Origin: Escherichia phage T2
Length of the DNA stretch: 64,000 bases
Direction: 5' to 3' (one strand)
Sequence record: NC_054931.1
In this document: in pieces, positions 14,218 to 43,132 of the stretch
How the letters are laid out: each line of letters starts with the position of its first letter
Numbering within the stretch: the first letter of the stretch is position 1
Position numbers and translations under genes: made by a program
Notes under the pieces: model-generated
The model's database searches: none
The model's input: only the letters and a program-made list of their open reading frames with translations
Told to the model about the DNA's origin: nothing

Positions 14218-14233
14218 GTAATTCTCCTTTTAT

Positions 14234-14443
14234 TTAAATTACATGACTATTTATAATAAATTCTCGCGGAACGTTAAAATACCCAATTTTAGTTAATATA
14301 ACAACATCACCATTAATAATTACCGGAGAATAATCTTCTGGAGCATTAAATTTCCAATGGGCTCTAATATTATATCCATCAGAACCAAATGCTCGACTAG
14401 CCGGTCTCCCGGCTTTTTGCCATGCATAAAAATCAAATTTCAT
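14234..14443 (-). CDS. hypothetical small protein (soc.1-like position)
   Basis: 69-aa ORF. Confidence 0.35.
   Translation of the reverse strand: MKFDFYAWQKAGRPASRAFGSDGYNIRAHWKFNAPEDYSPVIINGDVVILTKIGYFNVPREFIINSHVI
14248..14255 (-). promoter_or_regulatory. late promoter TATAAATA upstream of soc
   Basis: plus strand tatttata about 30 nt upstream of soc ATG, followed by SD aaggag. Confidence 0.55.
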
Positions 14444-14634
14444 TTTGAATGCTCTATAATTAATTTTAAAGCTTCTTCACTGACAAAAATTTCGTCAGGA
14501 CCTTCTATAATTTCAACCATACGAAGTTGATTAGTTAAGAGCTCACACACGAGCTCTTTGTTATAATCTTTAAATAGCTGGTCAATACGTTTCTTATGGG
14601 CTTTCTTAAGCTGACGTTTATTTAAACGAGCCAT
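14440..14634 (-). CDS. hypothetical small protein (soc.2-like position)
   Basis: 64-aa ORF with ATGA overlaps. Confidence 0.35.
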   Translation of the reverse strand: MARLNKRQLKKAHKKRIDQLFKDYNKELVCELLTNQLRMVEIIEGPDEIFVSEEALKLIIEHSK

Positions 14635-15212: not shown

Positions 15213-16001
<789 letters not shown>

Positions 16002-16005
16002 TCAT

Positions 16006-16551
16006 TTATTGCAGCAAAAATGAATTATACAATTCTTCATCATATGTATTTGATAATAATACTAACACGTTTTGTGATTTAGCATATTCATTAAACCTTG
16101 CTTGGATGGTTGGATTATCAGTAAATGATTCTCTTTTTGTCCATTTATTACGTGGATAATATCCGCATGGCAAAAAATCTAATATCATCAATGACACAGG
16201 GTTTTCAGTTTTTGTGTATTCTTTTAATTTCTCTTTATCTTCTAAATATATTCCAACCGAATCAATAGCTGTACCTCCACCAACTTGGTGTTTAATTTCA
16301 ATTATATGCTTTTTACCGTTGCGAGAAATAACAATATCAAATCTTCTAGTACGCTTTTTAGTTATAAAATTAGAGCAAAACAAATTATTTGATTTTTCAG
16401 TATCATCAATTAAAACCATTTTTTCTTGATAACTAACTGAACAATCAGTGAAATATTCTTTTACTTTATTAAGTATGAAATTTTCAACTACGGCAGATAT
16501 TTTATATGAATCTCCGTTTAAAGCCATTTCATGCACAATTTTATTAATCAT
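16006..16551 (-). CDS. hypothetical protein with PD-(D/E)xK nuclease-like motif, directly upstream of dam
   Basis: 181-aa ORF; RFDIVISRNGKKHIIEIKH (D83...E96-x-K98); SD gaggatga; 13-nt gap to dam. Confidence 0.4.
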   Translation of the reverse strand: MINKIVHEMALNGDSYKISAVVENFILNKVKEYFTDCSVSYQEKMVLIDDTEKSNNLFCSNFITKKRTRRFDIVISRNGKKHIIEIKHQVGGGTAIDSVGIYLEDKEKLKEYTKTENPVSLMILDFLPCGYYPRNKWTKRESFTDNPTIQARFNEYAKSQNVLVLLSNTYDEELYNSFLLQ

Positions 16552-16576
16552 TATATCATCCTCAGCAATTTATTTT

Positions 16577-16606
16577 ATAATACCACAACAAGCTGAGAAA
16601 GTAAAC
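16577..16606 (-). promoter_or_regulatory. T4-type early promoter for the 16006-16551 / dam / 56 transcription unit
   Basis: gtaaac 16601-16606, 18-bp spacer, -10 TATTAT. Confidence 0.5.
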
Positions 16607-16641
16607 AAATTTATGATAAATATTAATTTAAAGGAGGACAT

Positions 16642-16842
16642 ATGGTACAAAAATTAATGGCACTTGTTAATGCCATCAAAGGTAATAAAAAGCGTATAGC
16701 TTTTACTATTTCTGCTATGGTAGGAATTTTACTCTGGAACTTTATTTTATCACCTGTTGCAATTGCACATGGTATTAATATTCCAATAGTTACTCTTGAT
16801 ACATTCGTAGATTTAGCATTTGCTTTAGTTGGGTTAATTTAA
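16642..16842 (+). CDS. small hydrophobic membrane protein on the plus strand
   Basis: 66-aa ORF in an otherwise ORF-free gap; strong SD aggagg 5 nt before ATG; two predicted hydrophobic segments; convergent with gene 61. Confidence 0.45.
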   Translation: MVQKLMALVNAIKGNKKRIAFTISAMVGILLWNFILSPVAIAHGINIPIVTLDTFVDLAFALVGLI

Positions 16843-28815: not shown

Positions 28816-29775
28816 TCACTTCCACTGCATTTCGCATGCTAATTGAATGAAAAGATAAGCTAAATGTAATTCAGTGTTAGCTGCAATACCATGATACTGA
28901 TTATTTTCACCAACAATTTCGTACATACGAATAATGCTCTGTGGAGTTACACGTGAATAGATTTCTTCGGCAAGTTTACCCACGAACCACGAATAATCAG
29001 CCGCGTATTTTGGTGCTAAAGCTCTGAGTTGTTTAACATCTTTATTTTTGAGAGACTCAAGAACATCATCAATAGCACCACGATCGTTAGTAACCAGTGA
29101 TAAAATACCAGCATCCAAAACACCTTTAGATGAATAACTATCGAGCTCGCCAATAGTTTTACGAAAATCAGGAAAATTCTTTTTAACCAAAGCTGCTACA
29201 ACTTTCATATCAGCTATAGCAATTCCTTCGTGCTTGCAGATTTCAGTCAATCGACGAATCATCTGCTTCATCATTTCAATTTTATCTTCATCAGTTGGTT
29301 GACCGAATGTAATAACTCGGCAGCGTGACTGAAGCGGTTTAATAATACCATCAATATTGTTAGCAGTAATAATAATACTACAGTTTGAACTATAAGCTTC
29401 CATAAAGGAACGAAGATGTCGCTGAGACTCTGCTAACCCTGAGCGGTCAAATTCATCAATAACGATTACTTTTTGACGACCATCAAATGAAGCGGCGCTG
29501 GCAAAATTAGTCAAAGGACCACGAACGAAATCAATTTTACAATCTGATCCATTCACAAACATCATATCAGCATTTACATCATGACACAATGCTTTTGCTA
29601 CAGTTGTTTTACCTGTTCCTGGAGAAGGAGAATGAAGAATAATATGTGGAATCTTACCTTTACTTGTAATAGATTTAAAGGTTTCTTTATCAAAGGCGGG
29701 AAGAATACATTCATCGATAGTAGATGGACGATATTTCTGTTCAAGAATGTGTTCTTTTTCATTTACGGTAATCAT
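28816..29775 (-). CDS. 44: clamp loader ATPase gp44 (AAA+)
   Basis: Walker [10 protein letters not shown], Walker B VIVIDEFD; start at MITVNEKEH gives 319 aa. Confidence 0.9.
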
Positions 29776-29809
29776 AATTTCCTCATTCAAATTTTAGTGT
29801 AAATTATAA

Positions 29810-29823
29810 AGGGCCGAAGCCCT
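29810..29823 (-). terminator. C(UUCG)G hairpin between genes 45 and 44
   Basis: agggc-cgaa-gccct inverted repeat. Confidence 0.4.
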
Positions 29824-29826
29824 CTA

Positions 29827-30513
29827 TTAAAAATCGTGGGTAGAATCAGCTTCAAGAGCTACTACATAATTCGCGTGTTCACCTTCAAATTTAGCAGCAC
29901 CTTGTTTACCTTTTGCCCAGAGCAGAAGTTTATAATTTCCTGGTTGCATTTTCATATTTGCCATATTGATAATGAAATTAAATGTATTTTCACCATCATA
30001 ATCACCAAGAGTCAAAGAATATTTAACACGGGTCAGAGCAGAATCTTCTACTTTATTAAAACCGTTAATTACGATTTTACCTTCTTTTACCGTGATAGCA
30101 ATTGTATCAATTTGCAGACCACGAGATACACGCAACAGTTGTTGAAGGTCTTCAGCTTTAATTTCAGTAACAACAGATGCTACCGGGAATGGAATTGGTT
30201 TATTAGGAGCAACTACTGTACTCGGATCGGCTGCTGGCCAAAAAATTGTTGAACGAGCATCAGCAATTTTAATATTTCCATCTTCTGACTGGGAAATTTC
30301 TGCATCATCATTAACTAGAGACAGAATACCGAGAAAACCGTTCAAATCGTAAATCGCTACATCAAAATCAATAACGTCAGAAATATTTGCTTCCGCATAA
30401 GTTGTACCATTAACTGCGCGAGTCATAATAAATTGACCGGATTTAAGCATAATACCAGAGTTAATAGTAGCGAAATTTTTAAGCAGAGCAGTAGTATCTT
30501 TAGACAGTTTCAT
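29827..30513 (-). CDS. 45: sliding clamp gp45
   Basis: 228-aa ORF; length and position match T4 gp45. Confidence 0.9.
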   Translation of the reverse strand: MKLSKDTTALLKNFATINSGIMLKSGQFIMTRAVNGTTYAEANISDVIDFDVAIYDLNGFLGILSLVNDDAEISQSEDGNIKIADARSTIFWPAADPSTVVAPNKPIPFPVASVVTEIKAEDLQQLLRVSRGLQIDTIAITVKEGKIVINGFNKVEDSALTRVKYSLTLGDYDGENTFNFIINMANMKMQPGNYKLLLWAKGKQGAAKFEGEHANYVVALEADSTHDF

Positions 30514-30568
30514 GTAATTTCCTTCAATTCAAATGAGATTTAATTTTATAACTAATTTAATAAAGCAA

Positions 30569-30958
30569 TTAACGATTAAAATCAGCCGCAATTGTTTCCG
30601 CAACAATTTGAGCAGCAACAATTAGACGTTCATCTGCATTACCGCAATAATCATCTTCAAGGCGTTCACCACATGAAGTCATAATAAATTTAGCACCGGC
30701 GTTTAGGGATTCTGTAGTATGTTTGCGCATTAGTTCAATCCATTTATTACTTACTTCACGATCGATAGCTTCATAATACGCATGACGAGCAGGTGCAGAT
30801 TTAATTTTGTTCTGAATAACTTCCATTGCGTTATCAGAAAGAGACAAAACCCATGCTCGACGAATTTTATTTTGGTTTTGTGGATTTGATTCAGAACGCA
30901 CGTGTTTTGGCTGAATATCTTTTACATCAACAGTATAATTCACAGTAATTTTAGTCAT
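30569..30958 (-). CDS. rpbA: RNA polymerase binding protein RpbA
   Basis: 129-aa ORF in rpbA position. Confidence 0.65.
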
Positions 30959-30967
30959 AATACACCT

Positions 30968-31156
30968 TTAGTCATAATAATCAGTAACAGTCCAAGCTTC
31001 ATTTCTATTGGACATTATTTTTGTATATTCTGCTTTAAATGCATTCCTAAGCATAGATTCAGTAACTATATGCTCTTCATTAGAAAAATTATTTCTCAGA
31101 ATATATCGTTTTATTTCAGGAATAGTTAATAGATGCTGTCCAGTTGAATATTCCAT
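30968..31156 (-). CDS. hypothetical protein
   Basis: 62-aa ORF. Confidence 0.35.
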   Translation of the reverse strand: MEYSTGQHLLTIPEIKRYILRNNFSNEEHIVTESMLRNAFKAEYTKIMSNRNEAWTVTDYYD

Positions 31157-40848: not shown

Positions 40849-42662
40849 TGATGCTTAACCCTATGCATGATTTCTTTATTTTTGCCGAGATTAAATCCAC
40901 GTTCGTTCGGATTTCCCAAATAACCACACGTTCTTCTTATTGTGTTCATCTTTTTAGGATCAGTTTCTCCACAAATAGAACAAACAAATCCGTTTTCAGT
41001 AGGAGTCATTTCATGGGTACTTCCACATGTAAAACATTTATCTACCGGCATGTTAACACCAAAATAATCTAAATGTTGTGCAGCATAATCCCATACGGCC
41101 TCAAGACCCTTTAAGTTATTTTTCATATCAGGAAGTTCAACATAAGAAATGTGACCACCTGTCGCAATGAAATGATATGGCGCTTCACGAGAAATCTTTT
41201 CAAACGGAGTAATATTTTCTTCTACTGAAACATGGAAACTGTTAGTGTACCAGCCTTTATCGGTAACATCTTTTACGCTTCCATATTTTTCTGTATCGAG
41301 TTTACAGAAGCGATAACAAAGGTTTTCAGCAGGAGTAGAATATAAACTAAAAGCAAATCCGGTTCTTTCAGTCCACTGTTTAAGATGAGCATTCATTTTA
41401 GTTAAAATTTCTCGTCCAATATCACGACCGACAAGAATATTCAATTCGTGAATACCAATGTATCCTAAAGACACTGAACTTCTACCGTTTTTAAATAACT
41501 CAATTATGTCGTCATCAGGTTTAAGACGAACCCCGAATGCACCTTCTTGGTAAAGAATAGGAGCAACAGTAGCTTTAACTCCTTTTAAGGAACTAATTCT
41601 ACACATCAAAGCTTCAAAACATAAATCCATTCGTTCATTGAACAATTCAACAAATTTCTGTTCATTGAACTGTGTTCCAATATAAGAATCTAACGCGATG
41701 CGAGGAAGATTCAGTGTTACAACACCAAGATTATTACGTCCATCAAGAATTTCATTGCCAGTCGAATCTTTCCATACGCCCAAGAAACTACGGCAACCCA
41801 TTGGAGAAACAGGAACAGATGAACCAGTGATAGCTTTATTGTTCTTAGCTGAAATAATATCAGGATACATCCTTTTGCTTGCACACTCTAAAGCAAGCTG
41901 CTTAATATCATAGTTCGGATCGTCTTTATAAAGATTAACACCTTCTTCAACGAACATAACAAGCTTAGGGAAAATAGGAGTTATCCCATCACGGCCAAGA
42001 CCTTTAATGCGATTTTTCAGAATTGCTTTCTGAATCATTCGTTCAGTCCAGTCAGTTCCCGTACCAAATGTAATTGTTACAAAAGGCGTTTGTCCGTTTG
42101 AACTAAAGAGAGTATTTACTTCATATTCATAAGCTTGGAATGCATCGTATACGTCTTTTTCTGTTTTAGATTGAGCATAATTCAACGCATCAGCGATTTG
42201 CCATTTTTCTGCATCCTCAATATGTTTTGCATATGTGCGTTTAACATAAGGAGAAAGTACTTTATCTACATTGGCAAAAGTCGTTCCGCCGTATTGGTGA
42301 GAAGCAACCTGTGCAGTAATTTGTGCCATAATTGCAGTAGCAACGCCAATTGATTTAGGAGTTTCAATCTGTGCATTACCAAGCTTAAATCCGTTTTCAA
42401 GCATTCCTTTTAAATCTACTAAACAGCAATTAGTAAATGGAAGAGCAGGGGAATAATCAATATCATGGAAATGAATAATTCCGCTTTCATGCGCTTTCAT
42501 AATAAAAGACGGGACCATATTTTTGGCAATGTGTTTAGACACAATACCAGCCATAAGGTCCCGTTGAGTTGGAAAAACACGAGAATCTTTATTAGCATTC
42601 TCGTTTAAAAGGTCTTTATTAGTTTTATGAATCAATCCTTCAATTTCTTTTTCAATTGTCAT
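40845..42662 (-). CDS. nrdD: anaerobic ribonucleotide reductase NrdD, intronless
   Basis: 605-aa continuous ORF; C-terminal glycyl-radical motif RTCGYLG and zinc site CFTCGS...CSICG. Confidence 0.9.
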   Translation of the reverse strand: MTIEKEIEGLIHKTNKDLLNENANKDSRVFPTQRDLMAGIVSKHIAKNMVPSFIMKAHESGIIHFHDIDYSPALPFTNCCLVDLKGMLENGFKLGNAQIETPKSIGVATAIMAQITAQVASHQYGGTTFANVDKVLSPYVKRTYAKHIEDAEKWQIADALNYAQSKTEKDVYDAFQAYEYEVNTLFSSNGQTPFVTITFGTGTDWTERMIQKAILKNRIKGLGRDGITPIFPKLVMFVEEGVNLYKDDPNYDIKQLALECASKRMYPDIISAKNNKAITGSSVPVSPMGCRSFLGVWKDSTGNEILDGRNNLGVVTLNLPRIALDSYIGTQFNEQKFVELFNERMDLCFEALMCRISSLKGVKATVAPILYQEGAFGVRLKPDDDIIELFKNGRSSVSLGYIGIHELNILVGRDIGREILTKMNAHLKQWTERTGFAFSLYSTPAENLCYRFCKLDTEKYGSVKDVTDKGWYTNSFHVSVEENITPFEKISREAPYHFIATGGHISYVELPDMKNNLKGLEAVWDYAAQHLDYFGVNMPVDKCFTCGSTHEMTPTENGFVCSICGETDPKKMNTIRRTCGYLGNPNERGFNLGKNKEIMHRVKHQ

Positions 42663-43132
42663 TTTAAACTCTTTCTAAGCTGCTTCTTGAATGAAGCTAT
42701 TAACTGTGTTTTGGTGTCAGATTCATTATATTCAAATCCTCTTTGAAGCATCTCGGCCATCATTTCCTCTTTTCCTAAACGAGAAAATTCCTTTGATTTA
42801 TCTCCAACAAAGTTAGGGTGAATATTATTTTGGGTGTAATCGGATTTTAAGTAAGTAAGTAAATTTTCTAACCATTCAAGATAATCAACCCCTTGTCCCT
42901 TTAAGCCAGAACGATTAAATTTGTGCTTCATTTGACCTTCTGCGGCATTGCAGAGATTACAAAGCAATCCACGCACCTTTCCTGCTTTTGGTCCATTTAA
43001 TTCATGGTCATGGTCGAGGTGATTAGCTTGAACATCAGGATTTAGTTCTCGTTGGCAAATTAAGCATTTACCGTTTTGTGCATTATAAAATTTTTGTTTT
43101 TCTTCTTTGTATAATTTGCCAGTCAATAACAT
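42659..43132 (-). CDS. 49: endonuclease VII (Holliday junction resolvase) gp49
   Basis: 157-aa ORF matching recalled endo VII sequence (MLLTGKLYKEEKQKFY...HLDHDHELNGPKAGKVRGLLCNLCN). Confidence 0.95.
   Translation of the reverse strand: MLLTGKLYKEEKQKFYNAQNGKCLICQRELNPDVQANHLDHDHELNGPKAGKVRGLLCNLCNAAEGQMKHKFNRSGLKGQGVDYLEWLENLLTYLKSDYTQNNIHPNFVGDKSKEFSRLGKEEMMAEMLQRGFEYNESDTKTQLIASFKKQLRKSLK

Follow-up and report, generated by a model that had tools for sequence, protein, structure and literature searches.

A candidate DpnII-like restriction endonuclease encoded next to dam in bacteriophage T2 and related phages

In bacteriophage T2 the gene directly upstream of dam encodes a protein, T2_31, that we consider moderately likely to be the endonuclease half of a phage-borne, DpnII-like restriction-modification (R-M) cassette. 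This reading builds on the PD-(D/E)xK fold of a structural model, on invariant active-site residues and purifying selection, on the linkage of the gene to a methylase at three genomic loci and on the insertion and deletion states found among related phages. The Dam proteins of T2 and T4 have been model DNA methyltransferases for decades. A review from 2025 still describes the in vivo function of T4 Dam as unclear (PMC12707154), and our literature search found no paper on the T2_31 gene. In the proposed reading T-even Dam would become the protecting partner within a mobile R-M cassette, with T4 as a degenerate exception and T6 as an empty site. It thereby offers an evolutionary account of the orphan Dam of T4 that lends itself to simple genetic tests, with dam-plus and dam-minus hosts and with mixed infections.

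Results

The R-dam locus of T2

The window analysed here is a stretch of 64,000 nucleotides of the T2 genome (NC_054931.1), and the coordinates of its relevant features are collected in Table 1. The nuclease gene, designated R below, is an ATG-to-TAA reading frame of 181 codons whose sole annotation in the T2 record MH751506.1, which like other T2 records is 100% identical in this region, is 'hypothetical protein T2_31'. Its stop codon occupies positions 16008-16006 and the ATG of dam (M) begins at 15992, so that the gap of 13 nt given in the first-pass annotation is exact. As had also been proposed there, R and dam form one transcription unit: they are adjacent on one strand behind a single upstream promoter, the arrangement of a co-expressed R-M pair. 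The promoter, which had likewise been predicted, was recovered by a consensus scan as a sigma-70/T4-early-like element with GTTTAC, a 17-nt spacer and TG-n-TATTAT at 16605-16577, and judging from these letters it probably functions as such. It lies inside the segment that is missing from T4 and T6. The motif GTTTAC(A/T)...TAnnAT also precedes the homologues in PE37, MX01, KPV15, where the cassette is relocated, and the P0007 contigs, and a near-match stands upstream of homologue P0013; an early-type promoter was found neither upstream of P0009 nor in the short flank of P0010. As such a promoter precedes R in most lineages, we regard promoter, R and M together as the unit.

In the translation of T2 Dam the catalytic motifs FxGxG (DLFCGG) and DPPY are intact. 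Its specificity for GATC is taken from the annotation of the T2 record and from established literature, and a note in that record states that the enzyme methylates GATC both in cytosine DNA and in hmC DNA. The T2 dam gene was reportedly sequenced by Miner and Hattman in 1988.

A 66-aa antisense ORF of hydrophobic sequence, dam.1 (RB69ORF029w, phrog_2024; 16642-16842, plus strand), marks the site of cassette insertion on its left side. It is convergent with gene 61, with a 4-nt overlap at the stop codon of that gene. The annotations of T2, T6, RB69, MX01 and PE37 show it at the junction of genes 61 (primase) and 56 (dCTPase); a small ORF occupies the position in KPV15, and in T4 the DNA is conserved there without annotation.

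Table 1. Features of the R-dam region in the T2 window.
Feature	Position	Strand	Description
Whole promoter-R-dam cassette	15214..16630	(-)	1,417 bp; absent from phage T6
Predicted T4-early-type promoter of the cassette	16577..16606	(-)	-35 GTTTAC at 16606-16601; extended -10 TG-n-TATTAT, hexamer at 16582-16577
Shine-Dalgarno GAGGA	16559..16563	(-)	7 nt ahead of the R start codon; read from the sequence
R gene T2_31 (AYD82628.1, phrog_8706)	16006..16551	(-)	181-aa PD-(D/E)xK restriction-endonuclease-like protein
E23 codon	16483-16485	(-)	On the preceding helix of the model
Codons D72...E85-I-K87 (FDIVISRNGKKHIIEIK)	16291..16338	(-)	Predicted catalytic strands beta2-beta3
Segment deleted in T4	16079..16614	(-)	536 bp: cassette promoter and R codons 1-158
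Run of five T (six T in most alleles)	16016..16020	(-)	DNA alignment of T2, PE37, Shinka, T4 and MX01; protein alignment
dam	15213..15992	(-)	D12-class N6-adenine (GATC) DNA methyltransferase, M partner; Pfam PF02086, E 6.5e-51

Fold, active site and selection

The first-pass annotation had called attention to a D/E/K motif in T2_31. The peptide, FDIVISRNGKKHIIEIKH, is indeed present, but the numbering was too high by 11, and the residues are D72-x12-E85-x-K87 instead of D83, E96 and K98. Note that the motif alone does not rise above chance in this AT-rich window, where of the 67 ORFs with 100 aa or more 48 contain D-x(8,25)-[DE]-x-K and three the exact spacing D-x12-E-x-K. We take it as real on account of the fold, the invariance of its residues and the gene context, not of the motif by itself.

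A model calculated with AlphaFold2 from seven homologues (mean pLDDT 78.7, pTM 0.77) consists of a helix (15-33), the strands 38-47, 67-77 and 80-87, and then helix, strand, helix, strand and helix in this order, and it contains the alpha-beta-beta-beta-alpha-beta core of the PD-(D/E)xK superfamily. In this model the second strand (67-77) carries D72 and the third (80-87) both E85 and K87, so that together with E23 the acidic residues and the lysine occupy the helix and the strands beta2 and beta3 where a PD-(D/E)xK enzyme is expected to carry them. A Foldseek search against the PDB returned nucleases of this superfamily, EcoRI among them, as all of its top matches, in agreement with the restriction-endonuclease-like core suggested earlier. 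The first-pass annotation had let this assignment stand or fall with fold prediction and with conservation of the D/E/K residues: the predicted fold is that of a nuclease, and the ten aligned homologues, down to 30% identity, share E23, D72, E85 and K87 without exception, together with an invariant HQxxGTAIDS loop that follows the active-site strands. Where synonymous sites are unsaturated, dN/dS ranges from 0.03 to 0.3 for R and from 0.07 to 0.1 for dam. Fold, invariant residues and low dN/dS together indicate that R is a real gene under selection, coding for a protein of nuclease fold whose active-site constellation is intact; metal-dependent cleavage would proceed via E23, D72, E85 and K87.

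A sequence search of the solved structures with the family profile gave no matches, and a scan of NCBIfam returned noise only. No reader domain fused to the nuclease, such as a winged helix, was found in Pfam, NCBIfam or PADLOC, and in the model the 181 aa make up one compact domain. Neither sequence nor structural similarity to the MutH/Sau3AI family of GATC nickases was detected.

Relation to DpnII

The Pfam family that collected the most homologue matches is DpnII (PF04556), with 5 of the 10 members at E values of up to 1. At 15.7 bits for the T2 protein and 22.5 bits for P0009, the best homologue, the scores stay below the gathering score of 23, and no family was matched above its curated threshold. 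The PADLOC model PDLC03548 matched 4 of the 10 members with a best E value of 5.3e-6, compared with 8.5e-127 for authentic DpnII. When the family was compared by hhalign with an alignment of 16 DpnII-family proteins from the database, the profiles of the catalytic cores were found to be similar with P values of 3-6e-4 over 78-94 columns, and with 200 column-shuffled DpnII templates as controls the real score of 33.8 was never reached (control mean 14.7, sd 2.7, maximum 24.1). In this alignment E23, D72 and E85 pair with E152, D201 and E214 of DpnII, and the column of K87 holds N216 (E214-x-N216). The T2 family motif VVE(N) on the helix is paired with AME(N), RRFDIVI with KRFDFVI, IIEIK with LIEVN and GGGT with GSGS. 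Given sub-threshold scores on the one hand and significant profile similarity on the other, we call the T2 protein DpnII-like and not a member of the DpnII family. An orthologue in phage Shinka (GenBank MZ502379) has independently been labelled 'putative DpnII restriction endonuclease'.

The resemblance to DpnII/MboI thus extends over the helix glutamate, the RFD(I/F)VI strand, the (I/L)IE(I/V)x strand and the GxG(T/S) loop, all of which align, and the neighbour is a D12 GATC methylase in both cases. In the C-terminal half of a predicted DpnII structure the secondary-structure elements follow the same order as in the T2 protein. The T2 protein matches DpnII only from about residue 125/140 (to about 226 and onward), so that some 140 N-terminal residues of DpnII have no counterpart in it, and the E-x-N of DpnII is E-x-K in the T2 protein. 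Its family is confined to T4-like phages, the scan of bacterial genomes having returned no member. With lengths of 181-190 aa, or 225-227 aa in the two most distant cases, the homologues do not show the full-length DpnII architecture of about 280 aa with its N-terminal helical region.

The PDB neighbour lists of the T2 protein and of DpnII overlap, with Can2, BstEII, VC1899, AF1548, NgoMIV and BsoBI in common. A structural tie to DpnII through MunI as a shared nearest neighbour was considered and discarded as not diagnostic, the top match of DpnII being BstEII, with MunI at rank 57. MunI, which recognises CAATTG, and EcoRI are of the small homodimeric type IIP kind; the T2 protein is only 12% identical and shows no family match at the level of sequence, and the structural neighbourhood that it has in common with these enzymes is common to many other PD-(D/E)xK nucleases.

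Occurrence of R and its association with dam

When 1.84 billion representative proteins were scanned in full by HMM, 11 matched. Two loci in IMG/VR and three in metagenomes added nothing new, and no match was obtained in 185,579 prokaryotic genomes (one per bacterial or archaeal species). With so few matches in such wide searches the family is tiny, and its alignment could not be deepened. All members with an identifiable context belong to T4-like phages, and in every homologue with downstream sequence, which covers the T2-type, MX01, the KPV15-type, P0007, P0009, P0010 and P0013, R lies directly upstream of a D12-class methylase gene or overlaps it (Table 2). The stop codon of R and the start of dam overlap or abut in all alleles except that of T2 (TAATG, ATGA, or 7-35 nt).

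Table 2. Lineages carrying R and the gene that follows it.
Lineage	Identity to T2 R	Gene downstream
T2-type Tequatroviruses	Reference	D12 methylase
MX01 (Dhakavirus)	64%	D12 methylase
P0007 contigs	55%	D12 methylase
P0009	49%	D12 methylase
KPV15-type Jiaodaviruses	45%	D12 methylase
P0010 and P0013	About 35%	D12 methylase

The pair was found at three genomic sites, namely 61/56 in T2, MX01 and P0007, denB/ndd in KPV15, whose 61/56 site is empty, and upstream of rIIA in P0013. R diverges faster than M. Among the R-bearing loci inspected R never occurs without M, and M without R was seen repeatedly, T4 being such an M-only case. About 502 records of the phage database contain matches to the cassette flanks: 182 carry a T2-type dam, 153 a full-length R and 179 the junction of the R 3' end with dam, about 26-29 have dam with R deleted as in T4, and about 320 have neither gene. 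Full-length R is kept in about 84% of the phages with a T2-type dam, and about 64% of the Tequatrovirus records, Dam-less like T6, are without the whole cassette; six Jiaodavirus records contain the cassette and about 140 are empty. An R that at the loci inspected is never without M and diverges faster than it, orphan copies of M and the presence or absence of the whole block are as expected of an R-M module and its decay.

Allelic states in T2, T4, T6 and RB69

T6 can be aligned with the window from 17000 down to 16631 and again from 15213 on, where the stop codon of dam has its last base; what is missing in between is exactly the unit of 1,417 bp. The T6 annotation accordingly lists gene 61, dam.1 and gene 56 and no dam, and the 61/56 site of RB69 is empty in the same way. 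In T4 the last 23 codons of R, 100% identical to T2, are retained and followed by dam, whose product is 97.7% identical to T2 Dam and encoded at the same locus; the orphan T4 Dam (M.EcoT4Dam) differs from that of T2 in having lost the cassette promoter and R codons 1-158. The homologue whose presence at this position in T2, T4 or T6 the first-pass annotation had wanted checked is therefore there in T2, reduced to a 23-codon remnant in T4 and missing from T6.

The T4 record X01416 of 1984 lists, at 613-641, a putative early promoter of dam named P(E)17.40. It spans the deletion junction and the 23-codon remnant and corresponds to window positions of about 16040-16078 plus the junction. As the annotated element lies across the junction, T4 dam may be driven by a promoter that the deletion created or exposed.

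The R allele of T2 is itself altered. A run of six T in most alleles is one nucleotide shorter here, and the resulting -1 frameshift at codon 179 replaces the last eight residues, FAAINERI, by LLQ and breaks the TAATG overlap of stop and start codons with dam. The same frameshift is found in the T4 remnant. Judged by its sequence, T2's own R allele may be weakened or dead. The six-nucleotide homopolymer that most alleles have at 16016-16020 is of the length, at least 6 bp, that has been used to define putative phage 'contingency loci' (bioRxiv 10.1101/2025.10.21.683753).

A further difference between the two phages is found at 14226-14626, where T2 has soc.1 and soc.2 and T4 (L002, 3931-4605) the homing endonuclease gene segF. 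With the cassette on one side and segF/soc on the other, the dam-56-soc neighbourhood is a hot spot of presence and absence on both sides of gene 56.

GATC depletion and cytosine modification

Relative to a Markov expectation, GATC is the most depleted tetramer in the T2 window (1-64000), with 61 occurrences observed and 201 expected (O/E 0.30); the corresponding ratios are 0.14 in KPV15 (1-45000) and 0.16 in RB69 (1-50000). We considered this depletion as evidence specific to the cassette and rejected it, as GATC is equally depleted in RB69, which has an empty 61/56 site and in its first 50 kb no match to Dam or R. The depletion is lineage-wide and does not single out the carriers. Host MutH or Dam, GATC restriction enzymes and conflict between phages are candidates for its cause.

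The phages KP15 and KP27, related to KPV15, have been described as containing unmodified cytosine and as lacking genes for dCMP hydroxymethyltransferase and glucosyltransferase (PMC3620542). That unmodified cytosine would make protection by Dam essential in Jiaodavirus carriers was considered and likewise rejected, since KPV15 is annotated with both functions. These annotations, at 29455-31021 and 41549-42745 of KPV15, comprise a dCMP hydroxymethyltransferase gene broken into two ORFs and genes for glucosyltransferases, and they conflict with the statement on KP15 and KP27.

Discussion

DpnII cuts GATC that does not contain m6A and is blocked by m6A (PMC12707154), and the reading that we favour transfers this behaviour to T2_31. 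The cassette, carried only by T4-like phages, would consist of an early promoter, R and dam. R would be a single-domain, type IIP-like PD-(D/E)xK nuclease, a distant relative of the catalytic C-terminal part of DpnII/MboI, and would cut double-stranded DNA at GATC sites without N6-methyladenine. Dam, presumably co-transcribed with R and in most alleles translationally coupled to it, would methylate the GATC sites of the phage and thereby protect them. Inside the infected cell the likely targets would be DNAs without Dam methylation, those of co-infecting phages in particular. The cassette comes and goes as a unit, being present in T2 and absent from T6 and RB69, and its decay strikes R first, as is typical of R-M systems, with the 3' frameshift seen in T2 and then the deletion seen in T4, which leaves an orphan dam. 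This course of events suggests that the orphan Dam of T4 is the remnant of a phage-borne restriction-modification system.

As a system, a type II R-M pair is nothing new, and R-M systems carried by viruses are known; what is uncharacterised is the phage-restricted lineage to which the nuclease belongs. Chlorella virus PBCV-1 encodes R.CviAI/M.CviAI, acting on GATC, and phage P1 EcoP1I; CviAI is blocked by m6A. Common to these systems and the T2 cassette is that the virus encodes a nuclease together with a protecting methylase, and the difference is that the hosts of the T2 cassette have DNA that is Dam-methylated already and that its carriers are virulent phages with hypermodified (glucosyl-hmC) DNA. 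If the reading is correct, the DpnII-like enzymes gain a compact branch confined to phages, and the cassette is an example of an R-M system in virulent phages with such DNA.

The weakest point is the target, as there is no obvious substrate for the nuclease: enterobacterial host DNA is already Dam-methylated, which makes degradation of host DNA an unlikely role for the cassette, and T-even phage DNA carries glucosyl-hmC. The order of the genes also speaks against an R-M system, since R precedes M in one operon and M has no head start. That abundant methylated host DNA, which T-even phages are known to degrade, is the very substrate that an enzyme making positive use of the Dam mark would require. 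Such an enzyme might nick hemimethylated GATC in the manner of MutH, in the service of phage repair or to initiate recombination, or cut G(m6A)TC in host DNA in the manner of DpnI, with the phage DNA shielded by glucosyl-hmC, and the strict linkage of the gene to a GATC methylase would suit it as well. We nevertheless regard a methyl-directed enzyme as distinctly unlikely. The first-pass annotation had named an R-M and a modification-dependent arrangement side by side, and of these the classical R-M pair fits better and the modification-dependent nuclease less well, because the protein is a single small domain without a methyl reader, because DpnII is its nearest family and because it was never seen without the methylase.

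The linkage to dam bears on a different possibility, that of a PD-(D/E)xK nuclease whose specificity, structure-specific or cytosine-DNA-specific for example, is unrelated to GATC and which is merely co-inherited with dam in a mobile cassette. This we hold to be unlikely, for the linkage persists down to about 35% identity, through three loci and with overlapping stop and start codons in most alleles, and such persistence through divergence and relocation is hard to explain without functional coupling; moreover, M without R but never R without M is the signature of a toxic R that is neutralised by M. It is quite improbable, in our view, that the protein is no longer a nuclease at all and persists as a decaying relic or as a DNA-binding regulator of dam; loss of function has to be taken seriously for the frameshifted T2 allele in particular. 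The frameshift in T2 and in the T4 remnant does remove the end of a conserved C-terminal helix, FxAIKERL, T4 has lost the gene without a known phenotype, and most Tequatrovirus records (about 64%) do without the whole cassette. Against this stand the invariance of all four catalytic residues, a dN/dS well below 1 across lineages, the integrity of the other 178 codons of the T2 allele and the retention of full-length R by about 84% of the phages with a T2-type dam.

Returning to R as the partner of a protective Dam, its invariant need for M suggests that it can cut DNA of the phage type. This leads to a more speculative proposal, which we rate as rather unlikely, namely that the cassette is a weapon of phage against phage within the T-even gene pool. 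R would then cut glucosyl-hmC DNA at unmethylated GATC, and a phage with both genes would destroy its Dam-less relatives, the T6-type phages that make up about 64% of Tequatrovirus records, in mixed infection. Dam would confer immunity, phages of the dam-only T4 type would be immune 'cheaters', and the depletion of GATC would be the scar of this conflict. If true, T-even Dam would at last have a function.

In the database proteins P0008 and P0016 the C-terminal part of R is fused to unrelated N-termini, that of P0008 being epimerase-like (PF01370); these are probably assembly chimeras, or remnants of R fused to neighbouring ORFs. At the denB-ndd site, where KPV15 has R followed by Dam, Klebsiella phage KP179 (MH729874, 967-3267) has a different PD-(D/E)xK-like ORF of 210 aa with the motif VDIVASKNGETLVIDVKS and weak matches to Hjc and Cas4. 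We rejected this ORF as a member of the family, the match not being significant (P 0.14). The gene that it overlaps encodes a second D12 methylase, with MjaIII-like as its annotation, and after this comes the same Dam as in KPV15; the locus looks like an alternative nuclease-methylase cassette, by analogy recalling the swapping of DpnI and DpnII at the pneumococcal locus.
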